From: Somniosus microcephalus
Taxonomy: Eukaryota
Direction of reading: 5' to 3'
Assembly (NCBI GenBank): GCA_052327205.1
Contig: CM126211.1
Span: 176,948,001-177,012,000 of the forward strand
Length of the DNA: 64,000 bases
Notes under the pieces: generated by a model
What the model was told of the DNA's origin: nothing
What the model saw: the letters and a program-made list of their open reading frames with translations, nothing else
The model's database searches: none
Position numbers and translations under genes: made by a program
Shown here: positions 35,020-59,570 of the stretch, one piece after another
How the letters are laid out: each line of letters starts with the position of its first letter
Numbering within the stretch: position 1 is the stretch's first letter

Positions 35020-35890
35020 CATAGAAAACATAGAAGATAGGAGCAGGAGTAGGCCATTCAATGCGATCATGGCTGATCAACTATTTCTAGGGCCACTTCC
35101 TCAAGTACCCTAGGATGTAGATTATCAGGCCCTGGGGATTTATCGGCCTTCAATCCCATCAATTTCCCTACAAATACTGATTTCTTTCAGTTCCTGCCTT
35201 TCATTAGACACTATGTTCCCCAACATCTCTGGGAGGTTAATTGTGTCTGCCATTTCTTTGCTCCCCATTATAAATTCCCCTGATTCTGACTGCAAGGGAC
35301 CTACGCTTGACTTCACCAATCTTTTTCTCTTCACTTATCTATAGAAGCTTTTACAGTCAGTTTTTATGTTCCCTGCAAGCTTACTCTCATACTCTATTTT
35401 CCCCCTCTTAATTAATCCCTTTGTTCTCCTTTGCTGAATCCTAAACTGCTCCCAATCCTCAGGCTTGCTACTTTTTCTGGCCAATTTGTATGTCCTCTCC
35501 TTGGATCTTATGCTATCCCTAATTTCCCTTGTTAGCCACGGTTGAGTCACCTTTTTTGTTTTATTTTTATGCCAAACACGGATGAACAAATTCTGTAGTT
35601 CATCCATGCGATCTTAAAATGTTTGCCATTACCTATAACCCTTTAAGTAACATTCCCCAATCCATCCTACCCAACTCGCACCTCATAGCATCATAGTTTC
35701 CTTTATTTAAATTCAGGACCCGAGTCTCTGAGTCAAATACTTCACTCTCCATCTTAATGAAGAATTCTATCATATTATGATTGTTCCGTGCCAAGGGGCC
35801 TCGCACAACAAGACTGCTAATTAATCCTGCCTCTTTAAGCGACAATGCTAACCCACCTCCTTTTTGCCTGTCTTTCCTGAATATTGAATA
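35020..35890 (-). mobile_element. Mosaic of CR1 fragments (tail, EN-RT linker, EN)
   Basis: PWLTREIRDSIRSKE, EYESKLAGNIKTDCKSFY and NHNMIEF motifs. Confidence 0.8.
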
Positions 35891-35892
35891 GC

Positions 35893-36840
35893 AGAGAGCG
35901 CGTGCATGCGAGCGGGCGCGGAGAGAGAGAGAGCGAGGGCGGGGCGGAGAGAGAGAGAGAGAGCGAGGGCGGGGCGGAGAGAGAGAGCGCGCGAGGGGGC
36001 GGGGAGAGAGAGAGCGCGTGCGCGAGGGGGCGGGGCGCAGAGAGAGAGCGCGCGCGAGGGGGGGCCGCAGGGAGAGAGCGCGCGCGAGGGGGGGGCCGCA
36101 GGGAGAGAGCGCGCGCGCGAGGGGGGGGGCCGGAGGGAGAGAGCGCGCGCGAGGGGGGGGCCGCAGGGAGAGCGCGCGCGCGCGAGGGGGCGGGGGCGCA
36201 GGGAGAGAGCGCGCGCGAGGGGGCGGGGCCGCAGGGAGAGAGAGAGAGCGCGCGCGAGGGGGGGCGCCGCAGGGAGAGCGCGCGCGCGAGGGGGGCGCCG
36301 CAGGGAGAGCGCGCGCGCGCGAGAGGGGGCCGCAGGGAGAGCGCGCGAGGGGGCGGGGCGCAGGGAGCGCCCGCGCGCGAGGGGGCGGGGCGCAGGGAGC
36401 GCCCGCGCGCGAGGGGGCGGGGCGCAGGGAGCGCCCGCGCGCGAGGGGGCGGGGCGCAGGGAGCGCCCGCGCGCGAGGGGGCGGGGCGCAGGGAGCGCCC
36501 GCGCGCGAGGGGGCGGGGCGCAGGGAGCGCCCGCGCGCGAGGGGGCGGGGCGCAGGGAGCGCCCGCGCGCGAGGGGGCGGGGCGCAGGGAGCGCCCGCGC
36601 GCGAGGGGGCGGGGCGCAGGGAGCGCCCGCGCGCGAGGGGGCGGGGCGCAGGGAGCGCCCACGCGCGAGGGGGCGGGGCGCAGGGAGCGCCCGCGCGCGA
36701 GGGGGCGGGGCGCAGGGAGAGAGAGCACGCGAGGGGGCGGGGCGCAGGGAGAGAGCGCGCGCGAGGGGGCGGGGCGCAGGGAGAGAGAGCACGCGAGGGG
36801 GGGGCGCAGGGAGAGAGCGCGCGCGAGGGGGGGGGCCCCC
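35893..36840. repeat. GC-rich minisatellite with 11 near-perfect 32-bp units at 36361-36712
   Basis: Unit CAGGGAGCGCCCGCGCGCGAGGGGGCGGGGCG, flanked by degenerate (GA)n/(GC)n variants; no T on the + strand from 36020 to 36840. Confidence 0.95.
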
Positions 36841-39534
36841 TGTCATCGGTTGGTTCATCAGCTTCCGATGCTACTGTTTCTGGGGTAGATGCGACCTGTA
36901 CGTCGGGTTCATCCCCGTGACTCTAGGATCTGGTCAGCATGGCGTCTCACGATGCTCTCCCCAACGTCCACTGTGTACATTAGTGGGCCCTGCCGTGTGC
37001 ATATCGTTCCTGGCTGCCATTTTTCTGTTCGGTAGTCGCGGGCCAAGGCTGGTTGCCCTACATTGAAGCTCCTTGTTGGCTTCTCATGGATGTGCTGGAA
37101 TTGCTTACTCTCACCATCTCTTCGTACGTTTGGTCTGAGCAAATCCAGGCGAGATCTTAACCTTCGGTTAAAGAACATCATGGCTGGGGCCCGGTTGGTG
37201 ACTGCATGTGTCGCATTCCGGTAGGCGAACAGGAAATTGTCCACCTTGTGCTGCAGCGGAATGTTATCATTGTACATAGCCTTTATTGCCTTCTTAAAGG
37301 TTTGTACGAACCTCTCAGCCAATCCATTTGTGGCTGGACGATACGGGCGGATGTGTAATGCCTTACCCCATTCTTTTTCAAGAACCTCCGGAACTCTTCG
37401 GACACAAACTATGGTCCGTTGTCGGAGCAAATCTGTTCTGGCAAGCCATTCCTGGCAAAAATGGTCCGTAGGGCTGCAATAGTTTTCTCCGTGGTGGTGG
37501 AGGACATTTTGATGACCTCAGGCCATTTCGAGTGCGCATCCACAGCTATTAAAAACATTGAGTCCATGAATGGACCAGCAAAATCAATATGCACCCGTTG
37601 CCATGGAGATGAGGGCCACTCCCATGGGTGTAGAGGGGCCTGTGGTGGTGCATTTTGGACTTTCTGGCATCCTGAGCAGCTCTTGGTCAGGTCCTCGATT
37701 TGTTTATCGATTCCCAGCCACCACACATAAGCCCTGGCTAGGCTTTTCATTTTTACCCCTCCCAGATGACCCTCATGAAGCTCATTGAGCACTCTATCCC
37801 TTAACTTGGGTGGAATTACCACTCAGGATCCACACATCAAGGTCCCCCGGCACACTGACAGCTGTTCTCTCCTTGTCGAGAATGCTGGCAACAGTGAGTC
37901 GCCATGTGCTGGCCATCCCTTCACCGTCAAATCATATACCAGAGACAGTGTCGGGTCATTTCGGGTTTCCTTTTCGATACAAGCGTTAGTTACCGGTAGG
38001 TATTCAACTATAGTCAAATGGAATATTTCGACAGGATCCACTGCTGGTGCTTCCTCCGCAGTAGGCAGTGGCAGGCGTGATAGCCCATCAGCATTTCCAT
38101 GCTGTTTCGTGCCCTTATATTCAATCTCATAGTGGTGCGCCCCTAGAAAAAGTGACCATCTTTGTAGTCGTTGCGCAGTCATCACCGGAACGCCCTTCTT
38201 TGGATTAAAAATGAAGAGGCTGGTGATCAGTCAGCAAGGTGAATTTATGCCCGTGCAGATAGTGATTGAACTTTTTTACTCCCCACACTAGGCTGAGGGC
38301 CTCCCTGTCAATCTGGGCGTAGTTACGCTCGGCTGATGTTAGTGATCGTGACGCAAAGGCTATTGGCCTCTCTGAGCCGTCCGAGAATTTGTGCGACAGC
38401 ACCGCTCCAATGCCGTAGGGTGACGCACCACATGCCAACCGAATTGGTAATGCTGGGTTGTAATGGGCCAATACCTCTTTCGATGTGATTAGTGTTTTGC
38501 TCTTCTCGAAAGCTCGTCTACATTCGTCACTCCACTTCCATGGCACCCCAGTTTGCAGCAGGGTGTTCAGTGGGTGTAGTATTGTAGACAAATGTGGCAA
38601 GAACTTATGGTAGTAGTTTACCAGCCCGAGGAACAACCTCAGTTGTGACACATTTTCCGGTGCTGGAGCCTTGACTACTGCCTCAATCTTCTCTGCAGAC
38701 TTATGTAACCCCTCATTAGCGATAACGTGGCCACAATACGAGATCTGTTTTCTAAAAAACTCGCATTTGGGGCGGTTAGCTCGGAGCCCATATTCCTGCA
38801 ATCTAGTGAGCACCTGCTCCAGGTTGGCAAGGTGATCACTGTCATTTTCGCCCGTGACCAGGATGTCGTCCAAATAACACTGGGTCCCTGGGATCCCTTG
38901 CAGGACTTGTTCCATTGCCCTCTGCCAAATAGCCGGAGCTGATGCTACCCCGAATACCAGCCGGTTGTATTGGTAGAGACCTTTATGGGTGTTGATTGTG
39001 AGGTATTTTTTTGATGCTTCTTCTATCTCCATTTGCAGATACGCCTGGGCCAGATCAATCTTAGTGAAGCGTTTCCCTCCAGATAGCGAGGCGAAAATAT
39101 CTTCAATCCGCGGAAGTGGATATTGTACGGTGTGAAGGACCGGGTTCGCTGTTACCTTAAAGTCCCCACAGATGCGAACCTTCCTTGGTTCCCCAGGCGT
39201 GCTGCTCAACGACTTTTTCATCACAGGGACGATGGGTGTAGCCCACTCGCTCCAGTCTACCTTGGACAGTACACCTGAACGTTCCAGACTCTCCAGCTCC
39301 GCTTCGACGGCTGGGCGGATCGCATAAGGTCTGGCCTTAAAAAATTTGGGGCTTGCGTTTTCTTCAATTTTAATCGTCGCGGTCATGCCTTTTAGTGTTC
39401 CGAGTCCTTGCTGGAACACTTCTTTCACGTCAGTTAGGATCTTTGACAGTTGCCCAGGTGTGACATCGTCATCCTTTTTGTCAGCCACAGTCAGTGCCTG
39501 TATGGAATGCCAATCCAGTTGTATTTTCCGGATC
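36841..39534 (-). pseudogene. Gypsy pol: RT, RNase H, integrase (frameshifted)
   Basis: ORFs 38205.., 37823.., 37409.. and 36909..; RICGDFK, YLDD, ASPYGIGAVL, LHEGH..CSGC and HIDFAGP motifs. Confidence 0.93.
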
Positions 39535-39538
39535 CATT

Positions 39539-40110
39539 TGAGAATACCAAGGTCAAGGAAATAGAAACAAGAAACTGTGAAGGCAGCAAGAAGTAAAATA
39601 AAAAGGCTAAACTGATCTTTGGCTGCTAATATGGCTGGCGCCCACAATGTCACACCTTGCTGATAGGAACAATGTAAGGCAGCGTGCAGAAGTTATACAG
39701 ACAATAGGCGATCAGAAAACGCATTACCATGATTGCAAACGCATTACCATAATGTTTAGGTGATCGTGAACACATTACCAGGATGTTTACTTAGCTGTAA
39801 CCCATTCAGTTAAATGTGACTTCTTTATTTCAAACTGCCAGGCCAGGAAATCAAATTAAATGTATACGTGCACAGCTCAGGATTGGTGCAGGAATGTACG
39901 AGGTGTTAATGTCTTCTCAAATGCAAGTATAATAATGTAGCACACTGTATGAAAAATTGCTTGCTCTGTTGGGTTCGTCAGACTCTTGCAGGAGTCGGTG
40001 CCAACATTTCAGAGTAAGACTCCGCGGAAAATAAATCGTTTGAATTCTCCAGTTGCATTCGACTCAGTGATTACTGAACCAGACTGAGGGTAAAAGAATC
40101 CGTTCTATCA
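39539..40110 (+). promoter_or_regulatory. ERV 5' LTR
   Basis: Direct repeat of 46843-47414 with 3 mismatches by manual comparison; AATAAA at 40030-40035; U3 repeats AAACGCATTACCAT. Confidence 0.95.
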
Positions 40111-40112
40111 TT

Positions 40113-40130
40113 TGGTGTCAGAAGTGGGAT
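40113..40130 (+). other. Primer binding site, tRNA-Leu (CAA/CAG type)
   Basis: TGGTGTCAGAAGTGGGAT is the 18-nt complement of the vertebrate tRNA-Leu 3' end ATCCCACTTCTGACACCA. Confidence 0.9.
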
Positions 40131-40209
40131 CTCAACGGACAGTCACCGAGAGTTCGCGAACTAAGAGTTGAATCATCTCGGACGTGGAGAGAGGAAATGG
40201 GCCCCCGAT

Positions 40210-40215
40210 GTAAGT
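40210..40215 (+). promoter_or_regulatory. Probable ERV major splice donor
   Basis: GTAAGT consensus about 80 nt downstream of the PBS, the usual retroviral position. Confidence 0.6.
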
Positions 40216-40349
40216 AGTTTCTTGTACTACCTCGGTTTTCCTCTGATTCCGCCAGTCTGACGACGAGTCAGCCAATCGCTAACTCCTGTGTGGTGTCCCG
40301 CCGAGATCCAGGTCAGTCTGGCAAATACTGGAAGGGATAGGTGATTAGG

Positions 40350-40485
40350 TCAGTGATCGGATATCACTGAGGGTCAGTGATCGGATATCACTGAGGGTCA
40401 GTGATCGGATATCACTGAGGGTCAGTGATCGGATATCACTGAGGGTCAGTGATCGGATATCACTGAGGGTCAGTATACGTACTGA
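40350..40485 (+). repeat. Leader tandem hairpin array (5 x 24-nt period plus 1 variant)
   Basis: TCAGTGAT-CGGAT-ATCACTGA-GGG five times, then TCAGTA-TACG-TACTGA. Confidence 0.92.
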
Positions 40486-40624
40486 GGGAATAACTAGGAA
40501 CTGTGTAAACTTAGAAATAAGCACTTGTGTCAGGTAAAGAGCGTCGACCTCCTATATCACTTGGCCCGCCTAGGCTCTGAACAAGTTTAAAACGCGACTG
40601 TGTAAAGTTCACAAGGGGAGTAAG

Positions 40625-42680
40625 ATGGGCAACTGTTTAGATACCACGACTGAATCGGGTAGCGCCTTACAGACCCTTTGTGAACAACATCCTGACAAAG
40701 CAAAGCAACTTAGACAGTTGTCGGGAGGATTGAATAAGAAATTAGGAAGTGATCAATGGCCACTAGGAGGAACTAAGAATCTAGATGCCGCTAAAAAGGC
40801 TCAAGAACTAATTTGGAAAAGTAACAGGGGTACCACAGCCAAAGAACTAATTGCCCTATGGAGACAGTACTGTCAGGAACTGAAAGAAACTTCCTTGTTA
40901 GCAAGTTGGCAGGATAATGCCTTAAAATTAGGAATAGCACTTACAGGGGGAGGGGTAGTCAAATCAGTAGAGGTATTGAAAAAGGAATGCGCTCATGAGA
41001 AACGCTCAAAACAGGAGTCTGAAAAGACCACGAGCGAGCCTGGAAAGGCTGATAAGAGTGGATTACGTAATCCAATGGTTGGCCTTGCCTTGACAGAGGG
41101 AGATGGTGATGATGATTTGGACGAATGGAATCACAGGGCTCAGGTTGTTCCCACGCTCCCCCCCCCCCCCCGTATGTTAACATTTATCCCCCGGTGGCAC
41201 CCGCACCAGCTGCACAAACCCCCGCGCCGACACCAAGTATCTGCCAGTGCCGTTTCCCCGCCGCTGTCAGTCACGGTTCAGATGAACAGTCCCCCGCCGG
41301 TCCAGATGGGAGACCAACAACCGGGTCCCCAGTATACCGACCCTGTTGCCTTTTACACCCGACTCAGGACTAAGAATAATCGGCCCCCGACGACACCCTC
41401 CCCACCCCAACCCAGTCCATCAAGGTCACGAAAACGGAGAAATCAAAGGCAGATGATTCAAAGTCAGAGACTAGAGAGTCAGAGCCAGAGTACCCTCAAG
41501 GCTTTAAGGTCCTTTTTAGAGTGCCGGGACCATAGTGACATTGACAGTGGAGATTCAGGAGACGACTTGTCATCCCTGGAATCAGAATCTGATACCGAGA
41601 GACCCGCCAGACATAAACCGACACCCCGGCAGTTGCCGGTGAGACAAATGCCTAACCCTGCCTTTAACGCAAATATTCCAGTGGCCGCCGATAACCCCCG
41701 GACCATAGGTATCTTCTACCCCTGGAAACCTAACGAGATAATGGTTATCTTAGCCGGGATGCCAGATAGGAAGAAATCCCCCACCTTGTTTGTAGAATTC
41801 CTCCGGACTACTATACTCGTCTATAATGCTGAATCAAGAGACTTATGGGCGTTAGTACAGCAGATCTTGAATCCCGCCGAACATGCAAGGTTTTTGGTTA
41901 ACCTAGGCTTTGAGGACCATGCCACATTAGAGGCTCAAAACGCACAGAGTGCTGCTCGTGAACGCGCCATACTCACTGCTTTAACCACCACCCTGCAGAA
42001 ACCCATTGATATATCCAAGGGATACTAAACCACGAAAGGGCGAGGGAGCAGAGGAATTCCTAGAGAGATTCTCTGAGGTGTATCGGAGTCAGTCAGGAGA
42101 TGCTAATTACCGGAACGGAGCAAACTCGCCGCAATACTGTGCTATCCTGATAAATTGTCTACCAACCTCAGTGTCTGAAGCAATTAAGACTAACAATATG
42201 GACTGGTCAGAGAATAGTCCCAGCCAGATGGCCAGGGCAGTGAAATATTATTGGAAAGAGTAAGAGTCAGGAGAGTCAGCCCCAGGTCAAGGTCAAGACT
42301 GAGTACGTGATAAAAAAAGAGCCAAAGCCCACCCAAGATGTGATAGGGTATCAGACGGAGCCCAGTACTGCGTCCCAGGGTGGGTTGATAGACAAGGGTA
42401 CAGAGATACCAGCCATCCCAACGGACCAACCGTCCCTAATTATGGCCCACCCTACGCTCCCCCAAGACAAAATTTCGGCGATAGAGGAAGAGGAGGGAGG
42501 CAAGCAGGGTCAGATACCTGTTTTAATTGTGGCCAGCAAGGCCATTGGAGCAGGGAATGTCCCTCCCGAAGACAAGGAAGAGGGGGCCACATGCAAGGAC
42601 AACGGGGAGGTTGGCAGGGAAATCGGGGAGGAGGAAGATATACAGACTTCTCCCAGAATAATCCGTTTCCCCAGTACTGA
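40625..42680 (+). pseudogene. gag: ERV gag (frameshifted)
   Basis: MGNC myristoylation start; PPPPY late domain in a shifted frame at ~41160; MHR-like KPRKGEGAEEFLERF; NC knuckle CFNCGQQGHWSREC at 42519-42560; TGA at 42678-42680. Confidence 0.88.
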
Positions 42681-45600
42681 CTAGCCAACCTCGTGGCGAA
42701 CGGGTTCCAGTCGGACAAGGAGCCCGTTCTATCCCTGCTGATTGAAGGGAGCAGACATACCTTTCTGGTAGACACCGGAGCTATGTCATCTGTCCGATCA
42801 GAGCTCAATCTCCCTAAATCCGGGGAGACACAAAGCCTGTCCGGATTCCAAGGACAAGTGTGCCAGTACCCGATATCAGAACCAGTTGAAGTAGCATTTC
42901 AAAATGAGTCTGTGAAACACCAATTCGTGATCACAAATGGGCTGGATTGCAATCTCATGGCCAGAGACCGGTTATGTGCATTTCAACTAAGACTTGAGTG
43001 TGGGAACGAAGGAATAACTGTAAAACCATGGGCCCCTAAAAGACAATGTTACGTCTCTATCGCCCCACAATGGTGGACTCTGAACTTAAAAGATGAACCC
43101 CCATCTCATGTAACCCTAGCTTATGATCGAAGTGGGAAAGATAAGGAGTTGGAGAATTTTTACCAAGCTTATGAAGGGACTGAGTGGGATGTTGTTCTCC
43201 GAGCCATAGTTACGGGACCGGAGGGGAAAGCAGAATATGTTGAGGTTCCCTCGGAATTGTGGAAGCAACCCCTAACTGTAGCCCCACACATCACCCGGGA
43301 AGTGAACTCCCCCTGCCGTGCGGAAGATCTGGGACCCATGGTAAAACAGGCAGTTGAACAAGCTAACCCAGATGACCGGCGGGAGCAGGCCGTCAGGCGG
43401 TCGAGCTATCCTGTTATACCAAGAGCCAAAGGTAGTCTTGACACAGTTGCACCACCACGTTGGGAATGAGGTACCGGAATACGTCAATCCGCAAGTGTGG
43501 GCAGAAGACCCCACACAGGTAGGATGCGTTAAAATAACTCCAGCACGCCTTCTTCGCCTTGCCACTGGAACCGGCAAGCCAGTACCTCTTTGCTTTTACT
43601 TATAATGGACAACAATATACGTGGACCCGACTGCCGCAAGGCTTTGTAAACTCTCCAACATTATTCTCTAGGTGCCTACAAGGACAGTTGCAGACTTTGA
43701 CCTTGAAACATGGTTCTGCTCTGGTCCAGTACGTGGACGATTTGCTAATAGCTAGCCCTGACGAACAAAGTAACCGGGAAGACACCGCCCAGTTGCTTAA
43801 TCACCTATTCTCACTCGGGTACGTAGTCTCTCAATCAAAGGTACTAGTGGCCCAACAGAAAGTTAAATTCCTCGGCTTCATGCTCTCAGCAACCGAGCGG
43901 AGTCTAGAGAGAAGCAGGATTGAGCCAATCTGTCAGTTCCCCGTACCCCGTAGTGCAAAACAAGTGAGGCAATGGATGGGGATGGTAAACTACTGTAGAC
44001 AATGGATACCCAACATCGCTCTAGAAACCAAACGACTAACACCATACACCAGTATGGAGGGCGAGTTCCAGCTAGACCCTGTCGCCATAAGAGCGTTTGA
44101 AAACCTAAAAGAAGCATTGTCACAAGCCCCAGCACTGGGGAGACCCCTGTATGACAGGCCCTTCCAGCTATACTGCACTATCCTCACTGATTGTTCGACT
44201 GCTGTCCTAACGCAAAAACATGGGGACAAGCATAGGCCGGTGGCTTACTACTCCTCGAAGTTAGATCCGGTAGCGCTAGGGCATCCCGTATGCACCCAGA
44301 TTCTGACCGCCATCTATAATAGCCTACAATCGGCTGCCAACCTAACTTTGCAACAAGATATTACTGTATACAGTTTGCACTCGGTAACTGCACTATTAGG
44401 CCAATTACAAACTCAGCACCTCACTATGGCCCGACAAAATAAGTACGAGATATACCTGTTGAATAATCCTAAACTGCAATTTAAGCATTGTACTACTATC
44501 AACCCAGCATGTTTTCCTCACAGAACCACCCCTCGAACAAACAGACCCAGGACATGATTGTCTATTTTTAATCAAGGAAGATACCTCCATCAGGGAGGAT
44601 CTATCTGATGCCCCAATGCAGAGTCCTGACACAACCATGTATGTAGATGGAAGTGCGTCCGTCAGTCCCCTTGGGAAAAGACTTTCTGGATATGCAATCG
44701 TAGATCAGGACAGTAATACTTTGGAGTCTGCCGCCTTTGAACTTCCGTATTCCGCCCAACAAGCAGAACTGTTCGCATTAATACGAGCTTGTATCTTAGG
44801 GAAGGACTTAAAAGGTTAACGTTTATACAGACTCGAGATATGCCTTCGGAGTGGTTCATGATTTCAGACAATTATGGAAAAACAGAGGGTTCCTAACCTC
44901 TGCAGGAACACAGATATCCCATCAGAAATTAGTATCGGATTTGCTACAAGCCCTCATGCTACCAAAACAGATCTCCGTGATAAAGTGCTCCGCACACACA
45001 GCAGGACAAACCCCTGTAGATATAGGGAATAGATGCGCTGACCAGGGAGCAAGGGAAGCGTCCCAGGAACGACGAGTGGTTGTGCCTAGAATGATGAGCC
45101 AGACTAAAAGCTCAAATAAAAGCAAGTCTCCCTCGGAAAAGCCAATGCCAACCATCCAAGACGTCATTAAGTTACAGGAGGACGCTCCTGACCGTGATAG
45201 GGGACTGTGGAAACAGCTCGGTTGTACATATGATTGTGTGTCTAAATTATGGGTCACCCCTGCCGAGCAAACTTGTATGTCAGATGAGCTAGCATTATGG
45301 GTTATTGAATGTATACACTTTGCAACTCATTGTGGTGCCAGAGCAACTAGTGACACGTTATTAGCTACATGGTGGCATCCTAGATTACAAGCTCTGGCTC
45401 AAGGTATTAGCAGTCGCTGCCTCATTTGTCAGCAGCATAACCCGGGAAAAGGCATACCTTGTGAAACGGGTAAGACGCCGTTACCCACGGGTCCCTTTGA
45501 GACCCTCCAGATGGACTAAATTGAATTAGAAAGGTGTCAGTGTTATAAATATGTACTGGTTATTGTTGATGTATTTAGTAAGTAGATTGAGGCCTACCCG

Positions 45601-46299
45601 ACTACAGATAACAAAGCCTCCACTGTTGTAAAAGTTTTAAGGAGAGAAATTATTCCAAGGTACGGAATTCCAAACCGATTAAGTTCAGACAACGGCCCTC
45701 ACTTCGTGGGTCTGGTAAACAAGGAGTTCTGCACTCAAATGGGCATCCAACAGCAGCTACATTGTGCCTACAGGCCACAGGCCGCCGGACTGGTCGAGCG
45801 GGCTAATCAGACCTTGAAAAATAAACTTGCCAAATTACAGGCCGAGACGGGAACTACATGGCTCAAACTACTCCCCGTGGCCTTGTTCCAAATACGCACT
45901 ACCCCGGCTGGTGCAGCAAGATTAAGCCCTGCTGAAATCATATATGGCAGACCTCTCAAAACCCCGTGGAACCAGGAAGTCCCAAAGACTGTCCACTTTC
46001 ACCACATGACGGCAGAAATGACTAACTATATTTTGTCGTTAACCAGGGCATTGAAAAGTTTGCACTCCCGGGTACGCGCTGCTTACATCGACCTCCCTCC
46101 TATAGTCAGTCCGTCCCAGGTCGAGCCCGGAGCGTACGTATTAATCAAGAATTGGACGCGAAAAGGATTGGAACCTCGTTGGGAAGGACCCTATCAAGTC
46201 CTACTCACCACCCCAACTGCTGCCAAAGTAGAGGGAAAGAGTGCTTGGGTTCACCTCCACCACTGTAAAATTGTCAGTAATGCTATGCCTGAAACTTAA
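42681..46299 (+). pseudogene. pol: ERV pro-pol: protease, 2H-like domain, RT (N-terminal deletion), RNase H, integrase
   Basis: FLVDTGA; LPQGF..SP and YVDDLL; YVDGS, SAQQAEL, YTDSRY; H..TH/CLIC, SDNGPHF, VERAN, PRWEGPY. Stops at 45517 and 45583 and several frameshifts. Confidence 0.93.
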
Positions 46300-46346
46300 A
46301 GAACGCTAACCTCTCTTGCTTCCAAGAAATCTCTCCCTAAACAGAC

Positions 46347-46805
46347 ATGCAGACGTCGCTGTGGATCCTCTCTATCAGTGTCCTGATCACCCTTGGAATA
46401 ACTCAACAGCCCAGAATGAGAACATGCCGGCGGAACCAACCCAAGCGGGTACACCACCTATGCCACGAAGACGTGCTTCGGTGCAATGATGATAACCGAG
46501 GCGGGTTCGGGAAATGGAACGTGATCAACTGGGACACCTACATTGGGCTTATTAGACAGCCCCACCGCTCGCTAATGCTGAGATACATACACAGAGGAAC
46601 ATTGCCATGCCATTGGACCAAGTGTAAATTTGATTACGTCTGTCGACGCCAGGTGACCAAGTCTGTTACTGCAGGACCATGCAACAGAACTACCGATACC
46701 AAAGGACAAAGCTGTTATCCGAAGTCCAACCAGGAAAGGAAAAGAAATGGGCTGCCCCCTTTGAAAGAATTTGATCGACTAAATAAAATAGACGTAACCG
46801 AATAA
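46347..46805 (+). CDS. 152-aa signal-peptide, Cys-rich ORF in the env position (accessory protein or internally deleted env)
   Basis: ATG start, hydrophobic N-terminus LWILSISVLITLGI, 8 Cys, one NRT sequon, no TM segment. Upstream CTAAC, pyrimidine tract and CAG. Confidence 0.6.
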   Translation: MQTSLWILSISVLITLGITQQPRMRTCRRNQPKRVHHLCHEDVLRCNDDNRGGFGKWNVINWDTYIGLIRQPHRSLMLRYIHRGTLPCHWTKCKFDYVCRRQVTKSVTAGPCNRTTDTKGQSCYPKSNQERKRNGLPPLKEFDRLNKIDVTE

Positions 46806-46830
46806 CGGTTGGTTATCATAGAATGATGAT

Positions 46831-46842
46831 AAAAGGAGGGAA
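46831..46842 (+). other. Polypurine tract
   Basis: AAAAGGAGGGAA immediately before the TG of the 3' LTR. Confidence 0.9.
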
Positions 46843-47414
46843 TGAGAATACCAAGGTCAAGGAAATAGAAACAAGAAACTGTGAAGGCAGCAAGAAGTAA
46901 AATAAAAAGGCTAAACTGATCTTTGGCTGCTAATATGGCTGGCGCCCACAATGTCACACCTTGCTGATAGGAACAGTGTAAGGCAGCGTGCAGAAGTTAT
47001 ACAGACAATAGGCGATCAGAAAACGCATTACCATGATTGCAAACGCATTACCATAATGTTTAGGTGATCGTGAACACATTACCAGGATGTTTACTTAGCT
47101 GTAACCCATTCAGTTAAATGTGACTTCTTTATTTCAAACTGCCAGGCCAGGAAATCAAATTAAATGTATACGTGCACAGCTCAGGATTGGTGCAGGAATG
47201 TACGAGGTGTTAATGTCTTCTCAAATGCAAGTATAATAATGTAGCACACTGTATGAAAAATTGCTTGCTCTGTTGGGTTCCTCAGACTCTTGCAGGAGTC
47301 GGTGCCAACATTTCAGAGTAAGACTCCGCGGAAAATAAATCGTTTGAATTCTCCAGTTGCATTCGACTCAGTGATTACTGAACCAGACTGAGGGTAAAAG
47401 AATCCGTTCTACCA
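46843..47414 (+). promoter_or_regulatory. ERV 3' LTR
   Basis: 572-bp copy of the 5' LTR; AATAAA at 47334-47339. Confidence 0.95.
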
Positions 47415-47418
47415 CATT

Positions 47419-48530
47419 CATGTCCCAGTAATGGTGATCCTCCATCTTGCAATACATACAGGTCTAGTTTTGGTGTTTCCTTACCGTTATATATAACGGT
47501 CACCCTTATTTTTCCTTTGGGGTAGACTTTTTGCCCCGTGTACGTCTTCAAAATAATTTTTGTGTCTCTCAAGGGTATGTGTGAGAATAGCCGCTCGTAG
47601 TCCCGTCGGTTTATGACTGTTAGGGCTGATCCTGTGTCCAATTCCATCTTTACCTGGACTCCTGCTATCTTGAGAGTGACCCAAATGGTTCGGTGATCCT
47701 CCGTTGTGATCACATTATGTAGTTTCAGACAACTCAGTTCCCTGCTTTCGGAGTCGTTATCACTCTTTTGTTCGTCTGAACTATTCTCCGTCATCCTATG
47801 TACCTTCTTGTACTTTTCTTTGGTAGGTTTCTTATTGCTGGTTTTCTTTCCCAACCTGCAGACTCGTGCTATGTGTCCTACTTTTCCCACACTGTCTGCA
47901 CACTTTGTCTTTGAACCAGCAATCATTCTGGTCCTGTGCTGTTCTGCCGCAGCGATAGCACTTCGCTGTTCTATATGACATTTTGTTTGTGCCATATTCT
48001 TGCGGTCTCTGTTGTATCTCTGCAGCGCCCCGTGCTGCTGCTTCATATGATACCACAATGCTGAAAGCCTTTTCCAGCGTAAGGTCCTTTTCAGATAAAA
48101 GCCGTTTCTGGGTTCCTTCACTTTGAAGCCCACACACAAACTTGTCCCTTAAGGTATCTGCCAGTCCCGCTCCAAACTGGCAGTGTTTCGATAGTTTGCG
48201 CAGTTCTGTTAAATAATTAGCATTGCTTTCATCCTTATGCTGGTTCCGTTTGTGAAACTTGAATCTTTCTGCTATCATCAGCGGTGTGGGGTTTAAATGT
48301 TCCTGTAGTATCGTTACTATGTCTTCAAAACACTTTTCCATTGGCTTCGTTGGGGCTACTAGATTTTGTAATAAACCATACGTCTTTGCACCCATTAAAT
48401 TTAACAATACCGACGCTTTCTTGTCATCTGACACCTCATTTGCCTTGCAGTATACCTCTATTCGTTCGACATATGTAGTCCAATCTTCAACTTCATTGTC
48501 AAATGCGGTGATACTGCCACTCTTCGGCAT
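47419..48530 (-). pseudogene. Gypsy gag and protease (frameshifted)
   Basis: ORFs 47832..48530 and 47375..48139; MELDTGS and LKTYTG motifs. Confidence 0.9.
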
Positions 48531-49107
48531 TTTGGGTGTGGTTTAAAATGGCGTCTCCCAATGGCTTAAAATGGCGTCTCCCGCGCTTTCCTTCCGCCAA
48601 CGCTGCTCCCGGCGGTTCTCATGGCAATGGCGGCGCCCTGTAGGTTTCGCGCGCTTCTCCTGCGCTGCTGCCAACGCCGCTCTCGGCGGTCCTCGTGGCA
48701 ATGGCGGCGCCTCGCGGGTTTCTGCACGTCTCTCTCTCCCTCTCTTCGACGCTGCTCGGCCCCTGAACACCGGCTGCGCCCTGTGCACTCTGCCCTCTCT
48801 CTCCCCCGTCGACGCTGCTCAGCCCTTTGCTGTGCCGCTCGGTCGGGCTCTAGCCCGCCGCTGTCCAGGAAGGGTCTGCGCACTACCTGTTGCCAGCCCG
48901 TTTTGCTGGACCACCTCGACTGGAAAGCCAAGCCTGGCTCACGACAGCCTCCCCCGCAATTCTCGAGTCTCTGCTGGATAACTGGGCAGTTGCCCGTGGT
49001 CGCCACCCAAGTCTCTGGCCTTGACCTCCAATCCACTGATCTCCAGGAACGAATCCCCGGGAGGTGATGCAGAGTTGCAGGTAGGTTCGAACTTGCCTTG
49101 TTGCCAA

Positions 49108-49294
49108 TGTTGTGTCTGTGTATAATGAGACACAGACTGCAGGAGAACGGTACAACAGGTGTTTACTCAACGTGGCTCACACTGGAATGATCTGTACAGA
49201 TTACTACTCAGTGTTATATACAGGTGTGGTCACTGCCGGTACTGCAGTATACATGAGCTGTAAAAGATAGTTCCCCCCCTTAAAGGTATATACA
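49108..49294 (-). promoter_or_regulatory. Gypsy 5' LTR (approximate)
   Basis: Minus strand ends ..ACAACA followed by TGGCAACAAGG (49096-49106), read as a CpG-decayed TGGCGACGAGG PBS. Outer end uncertain. Confidence 0.65.
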
Positions 49295-50530
49295 TTAGAG
49301 AGAGAAAGTACTGGGCAAACTAATGGGACTAAAGGTGGACAAGTCTCCTGGACCCGATGGCATGCATCCTCGAGTCTTAAAAGAGGTGGCTGCAGAGATA
49401 GTGGATGCATTGGTTGTAATCTACCAAAATTCCCTGGATTCTGGAGAGGTCGCAGTTGACTGGAAAACCGCAAATGTAATGCCCCTACTTAAGAAAGGAG
49501 GGAGACAGAAAGCAGGCAACTATCGGGCAGTTAGCCTAACATCTATCATTGGGAAAATGCTGGAATCCATCATTAAGGAAGTGATGGCAGGACATTTAGA
49601 AAATCACAATATAGTCAAGCAGAGTCAGCATGGTTTTATGAAAGGGAAATCATGTTTGACAAATTTGCTGCAGTTCTTTGAGGATGTAACGAGCAGGGTG
49701 GATAAAGGGGAACCAGTGGATGTTGTGTATTTGGATTTCCAGAAGGCATTTGATAAGGTGCCACATAAAAGGTTACTACATAAGACAAGAGCTCACGGGG
49801 TTGGGGGTAATATATTAGCATGGATAGAGGATCGGCTAACTAACAGAAAACAGAGAGTCGGGATAAATGAGTAATTTTCAGGTTGGCAAACTAACTAGTG
49901 GGGTGCCACAGGGATCGGTGCTGGAGCCTCAACTATTTACAATCTATATTAACGACTTGGATGAAGGGACTGAGTGTAATGTAGCCAAATTTGCTGATGA
50001 TACAAAGATAGGTGGGAAAGCAAAGAATCTCCAAAGGATATAGATAGGCTAAGTGAGTGGGAAAAAATCTGGCAGATGGAGTTTTAATGTGGGAAAATGA
50101 GAGGTTATCCACTTTGGTAGGAAAAATAAAAGCGCAAATTATTTAAATGGTGAGAGATTACAAAATGCTGAGGTGCAGGGGGATCTGGGGGTCCTTCTAC
50201 ATGAATCATAAAAAGTTAGCATGCAGGTACAGCAAGTAATTAGGAAGGCAAATGGAATGTTGGCCTTTATAGCAAAGGGAATGGAGTAAAAAAAGTAGGG
50301 AAGTCCTGTTACAAATGTACAGGGTGTTGTTGAGACCACACCTGAAGTACTGCGTACAGTTTTGGTCTCCTTATTTAAGGAAGGATATACTTGCATTAGA
50401 GGCAGTTCAGAGAAGGTTACGAGGTTGATTCCGGAGATGACGGGGTTATCTTATGAAGAAAGGTTGAGCCTATACTCATTGGAGTTTAGAAGAATGAGAG
50501 GGGATCTTATTGAAATATATAAGATTCTCA

Positions 50531-52264
50531 GAGTCAGAGTTATACAGCACAGAAAGAGGCCATTCGGCCCATCGCGTCCGTGCCGGCCATCAAGCCCTAT
50601 CTAATCTAATCCCATTTTCCAGCATTTGGTCCATAGCCTTGTATGCTATGGCATTTCAAGTGCTCATCCAAATGCTTCTTGAATGTTGTGAGGGTTCCTG
50701 CCTCTACCACCCTTTCAGGCAGTAAGTTCCAGATTCCAACCACCCTCTGGGTGAAAAAGTTTTTCCTCAAATCCCCTCTAAACCTCCTGCCCCTTACCTT
50801 GAATCTATGCCCCCTTGTTATTGACCCCTCTACTAAGGGAAAAAGTTCCTTTCTATCCACCCTATCTATGCCCCTCATAATTTTGTATACCTCAATCAGG
50901 TCCCCTCTCAGCCTTCTCTGCTCCAAGGAAAACAACCCCAGCCTGTCCAGTCTTACTTCATAGCTGAAGCGCTCCAGCCCAGGTAACATCCTGGTAAATC
51001 TCCTCTGCACCCTCCTCTACTCCCTCTTCACCCACGACTGTGTGGCTGTTCATGGTTCCAACACCATCAAGTTTGCGGATGATACCGCGGTGGTAGGCCA
51101 GATCACCAACAACGATGAGTCAACCTACAGGGAGGAGGTCCAGCATCTCGTGAAGCGGTGCGCCGATAACAACCTGGCCCTTAACATCAAGAAAACCAAG
51201 GAAATCATTGTGGACTTCAGGAAGTCTAAAGGCAGAAGTCACACCCCCATCCACATCCATGGGGCTGTGGTGGAAAGGGTGGACAGCTTTAAGTTCCTCG
51301 GAGTCCACATCACGGAAGACCTCTCCTGGTCCCTCAATACCTATTCTTTGGTGAAGAAGGCCCAGCAGCGCCTATATTTCCTAAGGAGGCTGAAGGGATG
51401 TAACCTGTCACCCCTGATCCTCTCTAACTTTTACCGCTGCACAATAGAGAGCATCCTGACAAACTGTATCACAGTATGGTATGGCAGCTGTAGCTCCTAT
51501 GACCGGAAAGCCCTGCAGCGGGTAGTCAAAACTGCCCAACGCATTACCGGCACCCGGCTACCGACCATAGAGAACATCTACCAGAAACGCTGTTTACGGA
51601 GGTCACTGACCATCATCAAAGATTCTACCCACCCCAGCCACAGTTTGTTCGCCCCCCTGCCATCTGGGAGACGCTACAGATGCATTCGCACCCGTACGAC
51701 CAGATTTAGGAACAGCTTCTTTCCCAGGGCTGTCATCCTACTGAACTCCACAAATAAACTCTAAAGCCTGCACATCTGCCAATGCACTTTATTATGTTTA
51801 TGTATTACAAGCCAAATGAATGTTGAATGTTAAATGTCTTAATCAAAATGTACACTCTCGTTGTACTACACTTGTGCACTAACAATGACAATAAAGTTGA
51901 TTATTATTATTATCCTTCCTGTAGTGTGGCGACCAGAACTGCACAGTACTCCAGCTGTGGCCATACCAGCGTTTTGTACAGCTCCATCATAACCTCCCTG
52001 CTCTTATATTCTATGCCTCGGCTAATGAAGGCAAGTATCCCATATGCCTTTTTAACCACCTTATCCACCTGTTCTGCTGCCTTCAGGGATCTATGTACAT
52101 GCACACCAAGGTCCCTCTGATCCTCTGTCTTTCCTAGGGTCTTATCATTCATTGTGTATTCCCTTGCCTTGTTAGTCCATCCGAAATGCATCACCTCACA
52201 CTTTTCAGGGTTAAATTCCATTTGCCACTGTTCCACCCATTTGACCAACCCATCTATATCATCC
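50531..52264 (-). mobile_element. CR1 3' fragment nested in the previous CR1 and itself split by Rex1/Babar
   Basis: ORFs 50606..51010 and 51910..52248 are consecutive CR1 segments. Confidence 0.9.
51011..51913 (+). mobile_element. Rex1/Babar LINE 3' fragment with open 240-aa frame
   Basis: KFADDTAVVG, KTKEIIVDFRK, FKFLGVHI, KKAQQRLYFLRRL and FYRCTIESIL motifs; AATAAA followed by a (TAT)n tail. Confidence 0.92.
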
Positions 52265-52619
52265 TGAAGGGGCTTGACAAGGTAGATGCAGAGAAGATGA
52301 TTCCCCTCGAGGGGGCATCATTTCAGAATAAGGGGGCACCCTTTTAAATCTGAAATGAGGAGGGATTTCTTCTCTCAGAGGGTCGTGAATCTTTGGAATT
52401 CTCTTCCCCAGAGAGCTGTGGAGGCTGGGTCATTGAATGTATTTAAGGTGGAGATAGACAGATTTTTGAACTTATCGGAGTCAAGGGTTATGGGGTGTGG
52501 GCAGGGAAGTGGAGTTGAGGCCAAGATCAGATCAGCCATGATCTTATTGAATGGCAGAGCAGGCTCGAGGGGCCAAATGACCTACTCCTGCTCCTACGTC
52601 TTATGTTCTTATATCCTTA

Positions 52620-53010
52620 TGAGATGGGGCAGTAGTTTGCAAGGACAGAGGGGCAAGGGTTGGTTTTTTGAGGAGAGGGGTAATGACTGCAGATTTGAGG
52701 GAGAGTGGGACAGTGCCTGAGGAGAGAGAACTGTTAACAATGTCAGCTAACATGGGAGCCAGAAACGGAAGTTGGGTGGTTAGCAGTTTGGTGGGAATAG
52801 GGTCGAGGGAGCAGAAAGTGGGTCTCATGGACAAGATGAGCATGGAGAGGTCATGAGGGGAGATCGGAGAGAAACTGGAGAAAGATGTGAGTTCAGGGCT
52901 AGGGCAGGGGGGAACCTTAGAGGAAGTTTGGCCCAGTGGGCTAGGGGAAGGAAGGGAAGTGGCAGAGGCAGCTGAACAGATGGTCTCAATCTTAGAGATG
53001 AGGAGGGATA
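52620..53010 (-). mobile_element. L2 LINE fragment (RT N-terminal side)
   Basis: CSLDPIPTKLL, IVNSSLSSGTVP and KSAVITPLLKKPTL motifs. Confidence 0.82.
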
Positions 53011-53037
53011 CTGTACCACAGTGACCGTCAGTGGATG

Positions 53038-53890
53038 TCATAGAAACATAGAGATAGGAACAGGAGTAGGCCATTCGGCCCTTCGAGCCTGCTCCGCCAT
53101 TCAATGAGATCATGGCTGATCTTCGTCTGAGATCTTAGCTGATCTTACCAGTTCAGTACCCCGTCCCCGCCTTTTCTCCGTAACCCTTAATCCCCTTAGC
53201 CTTCAGAAATATATCCAATTCTCTCTTGAAAATATTTATTGAATTAGCCTTCACAGCCCTCTGTGGCAGGGAATTCCACAGGCTCACCACTCTTTGAGTG
53301 AAGAAATTCTTCCTCATCTCTGTTTTAAATGATTTGCCCGCTATTTTTAGACTGTGGCCCCTGGTTCTGTGCTCCCCTGCCATTGGAAACATTCTCTCTG
53401 AATTCAGCCTGTCCAGGCCTGCCATAATTTTATATGTTTCGATGAGATCCCCTCTCAATCTTCTAAACTCCAGTGAGTACAAGCCCAAACTATTCAATCT
53501 CTCCTCGTAGGTCATTCCCGCCATTCCAGGTATCAGCCTGGTGAATCGCCGCTGCACTCTTTCCATGGCAAGAACATCCTTCCGCAGATGGGGCGACCAA
53601 AACTGTACACAATACTCCAGATGCGGTCTCACCAGCACCTTGTACAGCTGTAGTAAGGTATCCCTATTCCTATACTCGAACCCCCTTGATATGAAGGCCA
53701 ACATACCATTTGCCTTCTTAATCGCCTGTTGCACCTGCATGCTCTCCTTCAGTGACTGGTGCACAAGAACACCCAGGTCCCTCTGCACTTCCCCATCTCC
53801 CAATCTATTGCCATTTAGATAATAATCTACCCTCCTGTTTTTACCCCCAAAGTGGATAACCTCGCATTTATCCACATTATAGTGCATGTC
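53038..53890 (-). mobile_element. CR1 3' fragment with open 244-aa frame
   Basis: ORF 53153..53887 plus a CR1 tail. Confidence 0.93.
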
Positions 53891-54302
53891 AAGTGACTTT
53901 AGTTAGGGAATGTTGTGAACAGCTTACTGAAAACAATATCATACAGCATATAGACCACATGATATAATTCCAGTAAGCTGGTATCAACACATTTCAGTAA
54001 AACAGCCATATGAAGCCATTTTCTTCAGTTGTGTAATCCTGATTTTCATTGTGCTTTCATTCCAATTATTCTAACTCAGCTTCCATCACCAAGGATACAT
54101 GTGGAAAATTGGGCGTTTTTACCAAAATTTTGTTTTGTATAGTTTCACTGATACGCTAGTTAGAATGAATTTGTGCACCGAGTTGAAGACAAGTAATTCA
54201 ATCTCTGGTGCCTTATGGCTTGTCACAAACCACTTGAGCTTCATTCTTGTGTTTTATGACGGATCAGAAATCTGAGATTGAATTACTCTCTTGTAACTCT
54301 CT

Positions 54303-54872
54303 TGTAAGGGTATTGGTGAGACCACACCTTGAGTACTGCGTACAATTTTGGTCTCCTTATTTAAGGAAGGATATACTTGCATTGGTGGCAGTTCAGAGAT
54401 GATTCAACGCGGTTGATTCCCGAGATGAGGGGATGACTTATGAAGAAATGTTGAGCCTATACTCATTGGAATTTAGGAGAATGAGAAGTGATCTTATTGA
54501 AACATATAAAGATACTGAGGGGGCTCGACAAGATTAATGCAGAGAGGATGTTTCGCCTAGTGGTGAAATCTAGAACTCAGGGACATCGTTTCAGAATAAA
54601 GGGTCGCCCTTTTAGAACTGAGTGAGGAGGAATTTCTTCTCTGAGGGTCGTAAATCTGCGGAATTCTCTGCTTCAGAGAGCCGGGGAGGCTGGATCATTA
54701 AATACATTTAAAGGTGGAGATAGACAGATTTTTGCAAGATAAGGGAGTGAAGGGTTATGGGGAGCAGGCGGGGAAGTGGCTTTGAGCCCAAGATCAGCCA
54801 TGATCTTATTGAATGGTGGAGCAGGCTCGAGGGGCCAAGTGGCCTATTCCTGCTCCTATTTCTTATGTTATG
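54303..54872 (+). mobile_element. CR1 3' fragment (decayed)
   Basis: [15 protein letters not shown] through to the 3' stem-loop and tail. Confidence 0.85.
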
Positions 54873-55619
54873 TAACTCAATACAAAGCATCCAATACATA
54901 ATAAAACAGACAACAGAATTTCCCCAAAAATCAACAGCAAATGATTAAACTTTCCATAATGACTGTACAATCAAAGGGTCATCACAAAGGATTGTAGAGT
55001 TTTAGGTAGGCTAAGTTCCTGAAACAGCCTGGTTGGTTAATTGGTACTATTTTGGCCACTTGAGAAAGTTTGCCATATAGTAGACATTAAAACTTTTTAG
55101 ATGCAAACTATATTAGTGGTTTTCATGTTTATAAATCAAGTAAACCTATTTTGTGCAGAAATAATGATACTGCATTACCTATTCTAAAGCCTAGTAGTCA
55201 CTTGAAAGTAATTTTAACCAAATGAGCCCCTTTAATCTACAGTATGAACATTAATGTGCTAACAGCAGAGTGTGCATCAGCATTCAGCATCCACTACAAA
55301 ACACACTGGTTCTACAAAAGGCAAATCTAAAATAAAACCTTAAGAAATGTAAGTAGTATATATTTGTTTAAAAATACACAAAGCAGATACCAGGAATTGA
55401 ATGCAAGGCAAGAATCTAATCTTAAGCATTCATATTATTTATAAACTACTCAAGGTCTGCCCTTGTTATTTAGGAACCACTAGATTAAAACCTAACCTCT
55501 ACTTACTGCCAGTTACCCTTTTTATTTTACGTAATGAATGCAGTCAACTGGTGTTTACTGTGCACTCACTGACCTACACTGTTTCCCAGGAACCAATGCT
55601 TCAAAATAAAGCATTCTTA

Positions 55620-55932
55620 TCCCAGTGTTTTAAATCCCTCCACAGTTTCACCCCACCCGATCACTGCAACCTCCCCCAGCCTGACAACCTTGTCTGCCCA
55701 CCCCATCTCCATTCCTCTAACTCCAGCCTCTTATGATTGGTGGCTCCGCCACCAATGGTGGACAATGTCCCACTCACTAGAATTCCCTTCCTAAACCCCT
55801 CCACACCTCTCCTTAAACCCTACTTTTTGGTCAACCCTCCCTCTCTCTCACTTGCCATCCATTTTCCTTGCACTTCTGAAGCACTGCGTTTTTCTACATT
55901 AAAAAGGTACTATATAAATGCAAGTTGTTATT
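55620..55932 (+). mobile_element. Decayed L2 3' end
   Basis: FKSLH motif and tail ..TATATAAATGCAAGTTGTTATTG. Confidence 0.55.
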
Positions 55933-56077
55933 GTGGTGCTTGGTTTATTGTACTGTCTTCATGGATACCTGTCTCAAGTCTGCAATAATCGATTTAATGA
56001 AGTCTTAACCTTTTTATAAATAAATACTGCACTACAGAATTCTAAATGGTTTGCTCATTGCTATCAAAGAGTTTTTA

Positions 56078-56528
56078 ACTGTGGCTCAGTGGGTAGCACT
56101 CTCATCTGAGTCAGAAGGTTGTGGGTTCAAGCCCCACTCTAAAGACTTCATCACAAAAATCTAGGCTGACGCTCCAGTCCAGTGCAGTGGAGGGAGTGCT
56201 GCACTGTCAGGTGCAGTCTTTTGGATGAGATGTTAAACCAGAGCCCCGTCTGCTCTCAGGTGGACGTAAAAAATCCCATGGCACTATTTCAAAGAGCAGG
56301 GGAGTTATCCCGGTGTCCTGGCCAATATTTATCCCTCAAATCAACATGACTGAAACAGATTATCTGGTCATTATCACATTGCTGTTTGTGGGAGCTTGCG
56401 GTGCACAAATTGGCTGCCGCTTTTCCTGCAACAGTGACTACACTTCAAAAAGTACTTCACTGGCTGTAAAGCGCTTTGGGACGTCCGTGCTCGTGAAAGG
56501 CGCTATAGAAATGCAAGTCTTTCTTTTG
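56078..56528 (+). mobile_element. Deu-domain SINE (SacSINE1/AmnSINE1-related) with L2-type tail
   Basis: A box TGGCTCAGTGGG, B box GGTTCAAGCCC, Deu-like core GATGAGATGTTAAACC..ATCCCATGGCACTATT..GGTGTCCTGGCCAA, tail GTAAAGCGCTTTGGG..GCGCTATAGAAATGCAAG. Confidence 0.85.
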
Positions 56529-59467: not shown

Positions 59468-59570
59468 TACGATAGCAAAATACTGCGGATGCTGGAAATC
59501 TGAAATAACAACAGAAAATGCTGGAAATACTCAGCTGCCTGGCCTGCTGAGTATTTCCAGCATTTTCTGT
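59468..59570. mobile_element. Short Penelope-like insertion with inverted end
   Basis: 14-bp TSD AGCTACTGTGCCAA at 59454-59467 and 59571-59584; perfect 25-bp inverted repeat at 59511-59535 and 59546-59570; same motif as 26053. Confidence 0.8.

Follow-up and report, generated by a model that had tools for sequence, protein, structure and literature searches.

A defective provirus of an epsilon-like retrovirus family in a probable elasmobranch genome, and recurrent env deletions that spare an N-terminal module

The window, a stretch of 64,000 nucleotides of DNA, contains an endogenous retrovirus (ERV) at positions 39539–47414, which lies in reverse orientation inside the pol of a Gypsy retrotransposon with CATT at either side. 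This provirus is real, defective and moderately young, and it is dead, being incapable of autonomous replication; activity of its family is not borne out by the loci sampled. We consider it probable that it is a member of an epsilon-like retrovirus family which exists in many copies in sharks and rays, and that a sub-lineage in which most of env would already have been lost put it into the Gypsy element, likely some 12 million years ago.

An earlier note on this DNA, made from the letters alone, had described a complete set of cis signals, and all of them were confirmed: 572-bp long terminal repeats (LTRs) with 3 differences, a CATT target-site duplication (TSD), an 18-nt tRNA-Leu primer-binding site (PBS) and a polypurine tract (PPT). 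The LTR pair aligns without gaps, with substitutions at LTR positions 134, 439 and 570, and its members are mutual nearest neighbours among the 135 LTR matches in the loci read, the next lying at 5 and 7 differences. In two RNA runs, 358 and 199 reads from uninterrupted Gypsy copies bridge positions 39534 and 47415 and overlap by 4 bases, which confirms the 4-bp target duplication. The PBS is complementary to the 3' terminus, with CCA added, of tRNA genes that this genome carries with an intron; their anticodon CAA (Leu) was read by eye from the gene sequences, the ARAGORN labels for these genes being wrong. Gag opens with MGNCLDT and has a single CCHC (Pfam zf-CCHC, 9e-09), the integrase (IN) ends in an MLVIN_C/GPY tail (6.5e-18), and the gag-pol read-through stop TGA-CTAG is present in 51 of 52 loci read. 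The order LTR-PBS-gag-pro-pol-env-PPT-LTR, the read-through gag-pol, the MLV-type integrase tail and the 4-bp TSD are those of class I (gamma/epsilon-like) ERVs. The class I, fish-type assignment made earlier thus agrees with the layout; in a quick tree the reverse transcriptase (RT) clade stands beside WEHV-1.

All the motifs named in that earlier layout are present, yet they sit in broken frames. Compared with natural copies of the same genome, gag is frameshifted near 41150, 41234, 42020, 42257 and 42361, and pol near 43392, 44516 and 44810, with stops at 45517 and 45583. The PPPY motif is out of frame with the Gag start, the front of RT has been removed by a 313–317-bp deletion at ~43540, and the integrase meets a stop right behind the codon of its first catalytic Asp. 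In env, a 1,422-bp deletion has taken out the surface (SU) and transmembrane (TM) subunits and links the 5' part in frame, at ~46764, to the last ~13 env codons; the open reading frame (ORF) at 46347–46805, overlooked in the earlier note, is the env remnant. Nine of the 11 gag/pol breaks are absent from every locus read and the remaining two are common to only one or two loci; being nearly all private, they would have arisen at or after insertion.

The env deletion of the window copy is found at five loci with different flanks. A deletion that removes the CNPase-like 2H domain and RT occurs in 24 of 68 loci (three of them extra copies of one duplicated insertion on contig C42), and a second pol deletion in 13. 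Deletion classes, once formed, were propagated to further sites. The pol deletions occur in mixed combinations with different env states, which points to mobilisation in trans and to recombination. One recombinant sub-lineage (L053, L062, L063, L090–L092), located mostly on contig C35, joins a divergent 5' U3 and gag to an RT-less pol and an env deletion.

To what extent has this family spread? First-look searches of the 6.45 Gb genome, in which 40 matches per search were scored, gave rough candidate numbers that are not copy numbers: the LTR yielded 983, integrase 319, the 5' module of env 173, SU 132 and the 3' tail of env 169. The family would accordingly number roughly 170–320 proviruses and ~1,000 LTR matches. 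Around family matches 97 stretches were taken and 68 loci scored, all chosen by similarity to the window copy. For the genome-wide search that the earlier note had proposed, for copy number and intact members, the outcome is a multi-copy family with no intact member among these 68. Open frames were found for gag in 7 loci, for pol in 2 and for env in 5 (51, 53 and 43 of the 68 loci span the respective gene), gag and pol are open together in 0/68, and the five loci without a large deletion have 5–7 breaks each. Solo LTRs make up 12 of the 40 scored LTR matches. Grouped by flank, the two-LTR loci number 37, of which 27 show matching TSDs of 4 bp, and the LTR pairs of these 27 differ at 2–13 of 572 positions (median 5), none being identical.

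With the rate that Han 2015 (PMC4422223) assumed, 2.2e-10 per site and year, LTR ages in the family span 8–52 million years (Myr) with a median of 20 Myr, and the window copy is about 12 Myr old (Poisson 95% range 2–35); at 7e-10 per generation (PMC10587355) it dates back 3.7 million generations. The integration had been called recent; its LTRs are 99.5% alike, but the age at the shark rate weakens that term. Identical LTRs and insertional polymorphism are among the hallmarks given for invading ERVs (ERVi) by Wang and Han 2023 (PMC10435555); of these, identical LTRs are missing both from the window pair and from all 27 TSD-matched pairs. An LTR identity of 99.5% in sharks need not signal an active virus. 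The earlier surmise of replication-competent relatives is weakened: no such endogenous relative was found among the 68 sampled loci, given 0/27 identical LTR pairs and 0/68 loci with gag and pol both open.

Some loci show a more complicated history. On contig C42 (48 Mb), which may be a repeat-rich sex or B chromosome, one RT-less provirus is duplicated with its flanks at at least 8 places (L070–L073, L087–L089, L097; partial L068, L069, L096), and these copies have more LTR differences (5–15). A burst of insertions on this contig was considered and rejected, as the matches are one insertion duplicated together with its flanks. Two-LTR loci whose flanks form no TSD (L001, L022, L026, L033, L041, L061, L063, L078, L079) suggest recombination between different proviruses, or assembly joins. 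L049 and L050 are tandem proviruses with one LTR in common.

The closest relatives are found in cartilaginous fishes. The best Pol matches are uncharacterised proteins from Heptranchias (84% identity), Scyliorhinus (two, 72–74%) and Leucoraja (61–62%), followed at about 41% by the next. That these five, 61–84% identical, are all from skates or sharks fits the elasmobranch genome supposed in the earlier note, and an elasmobranch host is likely because the nearest viral relatives are all elasmobranch. In a quick maximum-likelihood tree computed from RT and the connection (all 55 rows kept; built without ZFERV, SSSV, WDSV and class II/III references), seven rows, all elasmobranch and including an Amblyraja protein, form a clade (SH-aLRT 99) in which the skates branch first. 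This clade is sister to WEHV-1 (SH-aLRT 93; RT identity 41%) and lies outside the gamma clade. Env relatives with a named source are all from skate and sharks, namely Leucoraja, Scyliorhinus, Pristiophorus and Heterodontus, beside four further sequences. Judged from these comparisons, the family appears to be an elasmobranch-wide epsilon-like retrovirus lineage, apparently unnamed, which adds skates, catsharks, horn shark, sevengill and sawshark and whose RT branching roughly tracks the split between skates and sharks.

Several known groups can be set beside it. The ERVs of Chen et al. (10.1101/2021.11.23.469661), which are from amphibians and fish and include six cartilaginous fish, three of them with over 500 copies, likewise combine an epsilon-like Pol and an Env of gamma type, carry an immunosuppressive domain (ISD) and are free of accessory genes. 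Their text, as far as consulted, mentions no N-terminal module, basic site before SU or recurrent sparing deletions, while the accompanying alignments and consensus files could contain relatives. Lineages II and III of the elephant shark CmiERVs also cluster with the walleye epsilonretroviruses; compared by description only, they are few and 54–75 Myr old, whereas the family here has hundreds of copies aged 8–52 Myr at the same rate (Han 2015, PMC4422223). Epsilon-like ERVs of ray-finned fish (ZFERV type) share the 2H/CNPase-like domain between protease and RT with its two HxT/S motifs, but those CNPase-bearing ERVs form a separate RT clade, a comparison made without ZFERV and SSSV themselves. 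WDSV and WEHV have an Env without gamma-type hallmarks and possess accessory genes (Hogan and Johnson 2023, PMC9967133), unlike the family here, in which an ISD is present and no space is left for ORFs between env and PPT. With env reaching within ~30 nt of the PPT and an ISD, the family departs from the genus Epsilonretrovirus.

No description of the family or of the N-terminal Env module was found in the literature, a search that covered neither Repbase and Dfam nor the supplements of Chen et al.; within the same scope, Pol and TM are of known kind, while the module and its repeated retention were not met with. The earlier suggestion of an unnamed lineage stands to the extent that no family name was found, but ERVs of sharks and skates with an Env of gamma type, the CXnC motif and the fish-ERV CNPase domain had all been published before (Han 2015; Chen et al. 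2021; Naville and Volff 2016).

In undeleted copies env encodes about 626 residues. Its TM matches the profiles TLV_coat (6.1e-08) and Ebola-like HR1-HR2 (1.4e-05), contains an ISD with the motif QNRYALDYLLA, and finds its best PDB matches in filovirus glycoproteins (E 1e-17 to 1e-12), well ahead of syncytin-2 (3.6e-07). An internal fusion loop is recognisable as EFC...LIC/LVC flanking a glycine-rich hydrophobic stretch, and HR1 has a glycan site. Both the cysteine-bounded loop and the HR1 glycan are shared with filovirus GP2 and alpharetrovirus TM, which differ in having CX6CC; in the family CX6C is followed by L (35/35 reads), in homologues by I or M (7/7). ISD plus CX6CC has been termed invariant (Hogan and Johnson 2023, PMC9967133), and the missing third cysteine fits the CXnC Env subtype described among anamniotes by Chen et al. 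(10.1101/2021.11.23.469661). No CXXC was found in SU, neither in the Env part of the 7 homologues nor by eye in the family Env, and alpharetroviruses likewise have none. The predicted SU/TM cleavage site reads RKIVVR in 22 of 28 family reads and is canonical (RVRRR) in the skate relative only. The likeness to filoviruses reflects the known common ancestry of gamma-type Envs and does not point to a filovirus.

In front of SU lies a further element, an N-terminal module of about 80 residues with a conserved tryptophan and six cysteines, five of them invariant in a 9-row alignment. It is followed by a linker and, in most rows, by a basic site (RQKR, RVRR, RCKR, RRKR, KKRKR), which in most family copies is the non-canonical KRHER. 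A search of 1.84 billion proteins returned seven matches, six being Envs of the same layout; the seventh (P0130), a repeat-rich chance match, was discarded. Two relatives are without the module. Its model is a low-confidence beta-sandwich (pLDDT 51), for which a ToxA fold was rejected since the best VIA match (Z 7.7) falls within background; Foldseek gave no viral match with E below 0.001, Pfam none and the Atlas none usable, and the Atlas search with SU returned only Env clusters. From its motifs, Env would run from signal peptide through a small disulfide-rich module and a basic cleavage site to SU and finally to TM, whose fusion loop is internal and which would do without the usual SU-TM disulfide; env-deleted copies would secrete the module only. 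This Env thus differs from the textbook gamma type in an ISD without third cysteine or CXXC, a filovirus-like fusion loop and the extra module.

A leader in front of SU is also found in foamy viruses, where it remains membrane-anchored and binds Gag. The module here comes after a signal peptide of the ordinary kind and is predicted to be soluble, and no sequence similarity to foamy Env was found. Both Envs are nevertheless three-part with a cleavage site, predicted for the family here, before SU, the foamy one consisting of leader peptide, SU and TM with two furin sites (PMC8278194). A gene model of Scyliorhinus torazame (P0123), annotated as an LDLRAD3 isoform, includes as a fusion a related env that has lost an internal part; either a chimeric transcript or an error of annotation may lie behind it.

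Deletions in env repeatedly spare this module. Among 64 scored loci 29 are env-deleted through 12 events, of which nine have their left end at env nt 414–487 and two have it at nt 565 and nt 918, while the last takes away the initial 200 nt. Since an env-based search favours copies that keep the module, we recounted by hand in 40 loci picked by integrase: the module is kept in 40/40, env is deleted in 21/40 through 10 events, and nine of these start at nt 414–487. Random placement of deletions reached this clustering in 0 of 200,000 trials under either of two nulls; the simulation used uncollapsed events, and with left ends 449 and 487 occurring twice each the events may be fewer. The predicted products are soluble proteins of 152–178 residues, none with the membrane anchor in frame. 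An open module ORF is seen in 22 of 26 copies with an env deletion and in 21 of 29 without one, which is no clear enrichment. Integrase candidates outnumber module candidates (319 against 173), so older members may be without the module. An origin from spliced RNA was rejected for want of GT-AG ends, and homology-driven template switching because microhomology is 0–2 nt in 8 of 9 events; no long-range RNA pairing or strong hairpin stands out at the left ends. The idea of a wholly envelope-less family was abandoned once other copies showed env.

Traces of selection were sought by comparing variants shared by two or more loci with singletons. For shared variants dN/dS is 0.20–0.49 in gag and pol, 0.35 in TM, 0.61 in SU and 0.79–0.85 in the 5' part of env; singletons range from 0.6 to 1.4, most of them lying at 0.6–1.0, with 2.17 in 2H. 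The contrast is significant for IN (Fisher p 8e-5) and TM (p 0.045), the latter suggesting that part of the family's spread needed a working envelope, and absent from the 5' module (p 0.82, shared dN/dS 0.83). Two RNA runs of one organism, covered to 24% and 31% of reads, show the family's internal region at low depth (bin means about 4–36, both directions summed), with one direction prevailing in the first of the runs and both mixed in the second, and the RT-less junction in 3 and 15 reads. The Gypsy host is covered far more deeply (several hundred-fold); it is strongly transcribed in both runs, at a depth of several hundred and mainly in one direction. An index search listed no RNA run as containing the sequence, and six runs from three organisms in three studies contain 0.55–0.66 of the words searched.

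How might the family have come to look like this? The family possessed gag, a read-through pro-pol with CNPase-like domain and an env of ~626 codons. Envelope-bearing members may have spread by reinfection, consistent with purifying selection on TM, while RT-less members would have been mobilised in trans by a helper virus. Envelope-deleted members, such as the parent of the window copy, could have spread inside germ cells or in borrowed envelopes, and co-packaged genomes probably recombined.

That the family is instead still invading, with intact infectious proviruses or an exogenous form and the window copy as a very young by-product, is in our view very unlikely. The high LTR identity of the window pair, the many LTRs that are 99% alike, the single open frames of some copies, the low-level RNA and the constraint on TM would all sit well with it. 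Against it stand the LTR pairs, none identical and with a median of 5/572, the 0/68 loci with gag and pol open and the breaks in all five loci without large deletions; moreover, the slow shark clock turns 0.5–0.9% divergence into 12–20 Myr. The reading of a dead copy from an env-deleted sub-lineage is in turn opposed by several points. Its age depends on only 3 LTR differences and a borrowed rate, and 8 internal indels in 5.7 kb stand against 0 in the LTRs, which may therefore underestimate it. Some frameshifts sit in homopolymer runs and could be assembly errors, and the 68 loci were picked by likeness to the window copy, so that an intact member could exist elsewhere. The numbers behind dN/dS are low, and recurrent mutations are counted among the "shared" variants. 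The host is deduced from the viral clade; the RNA organism may be another species, and variant letters assign most reads to other copies.

Why the module survives the loss of the rest of env is a separate question. Our leading guess is that continued replication requires the 5' part of env in cis, be it as RNA or in the form of a translated ORF, although synonymous shared variants per site are as frequent in the module (0.159) as in IN (0.166), so that a cis RNA element is not supported. Alternatively, the clustering of the ends could stem from a hot spot for deletion by reverse transcriptase or from a small number of founder events, the module being functionless after env loss; we hold this for a serious possibility, if short of probable. 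The two recurring left ends, by which events may be nested, the neutral-like dN/dS of the module and the concentration of most deleted copies in few classes (7, 6, 5 and 3 loci) speak for it, while the scant microhomology, the lack of GT-AG ends, long-range pairing or strong hairpins and the seven distinct left ends that are left after collapsing speak against. Less likely still is that the module acts as a secreted accessory protein, an immune modulator or receptor decoy, which envelope-less derivatives were selected to keep. Six other Envs have the conserved-cysteine module with a basic site before SU, 9 of 10 deletions begin just behind it, none keeps the anchor in frame, and in one run the top sense-type RNA depth of the internal region lies over the module (34.6). 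Shared variants, on the other hand, behave like singletons, open ORFs are not clearly enriched, the fold model is poor and of no known family, the basic site is mostly non-canonical and two relatives do without the module. It is likewise doubtful, though worth stating, that elasmobranch epsilon-like retroviruses in general encode a secreted, disulfide-bonded beta-sandwich inside env, cleaved off before SU and beneficial without an envelope, so that it is repeatedly kept. If true, shark genomes would hold dozens of loci able to make a secreted env module; its retention through repeated env loss can be tested.

Another domain of the family lies between protease and RT. Its stretch of 113 residues is predicted by AlphaFold with a pLDDT of 87.8, and the best VIA match of the model is mouse CNPase (2xmi; Z 9.4, rmsd 3.4, 113 aligned), the next having Z 5.1; the top structure matches are nearly all 2H enzymes, and Foldseek gives probability 1.0 but E > 0.03. 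The HxT motifs are kept as HVT in 28/28 and H[IL]T in 27/27 loci read. The predicted fold confirms the 2H-like domain that the earlier note had named, here CNPase-like and with two HxT motifs. A profile search of database Pol proteins detected it in 20, which belong to teleosts, sturgeon, hagfish and skates. It is of an already known kind, since CNPase domains in epsilon-like fish ERVs are cited by Naville and Volff 2016 (PMC4977317) after Basta et al. 2009, and it represents a natural viral CNPase-like domain under purifying selection (dN/dS 0.20).

The features of the provirus and its host element are collected in Table 1.

Table 1. Provirus and host Gypsy features, in window positions.
Feature	Position	Strand	Basis
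5' TSD CATT	39535–39538	.	sequence; empty-site join in Gypsy RNA
5' LTR, 572 bp, TG...CA; TATAA at 39928, AATAAA at 40030	39539–40110	+	LTR comparison
PBS, tRNA-Leu(CAA), 18/18 complementary	40113–40130	+	same site in 52/56 loci read
Leader tandem repeat, 24-bp unit, about 5 units; 0–11 exact units in other copies	40348–40474	+	
gag: myristoylation signal, PPPY, one CCHC; 5 frameshifts; terminates TGA-CTAG	40625–42680	+	
pro-pol, in frame with gag: protease (DTG 42771), 2H, RT (YVDD 43730), RNase H and GPY-tailed integrase; frame interrupted	42681–46299	+	
CNPase-like 2H phosphoesterase domain; HxT motifs at 43107, 43287	43050–43388	+	predicted fold and structure matches
env remnant: 152-codon open frame, predicted signal peptide and six-cysteine N-terminal module	46347–46805	+	
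PPT	46831–46842	+	
3' LTR, 3 substitutions against 5' LTR	46843–47414	+	
3' TSD CATT	47415–47418	.	
RT/RNase H portion of the host Gypsy LTR retrotransposon, on the downstream side of the insertion	38205–39538	-	RVT_1 7.5e-27, RT_RNaseH_2 2.4e-35
Host Gypsy gag/protease part, upstream of insertion	47415–48542	-	gag-asp_proteas 7.3e-07

Around the 4-bp duplication, family insertions frequently have T at -2 and A at +2, a weak palindrome by eye. MLV integrase targets show a similar one. No host genes were seen among the 15 ORFs scanned in the rest of the window, where positions 1–38000 and 48500–64000 are crowded with LINE and other RT fragments and GC-rich tandem stretches lie near 35600–37000 and 63250–63960. 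Elsewhere in the genome, a tandem array with a period of ~1,160 bp has the tRNA-Leu(CAA) 3' end in each unit (contig C19, 72.81–72.93 Mb), and this end has 443 exact matches genome-wide.

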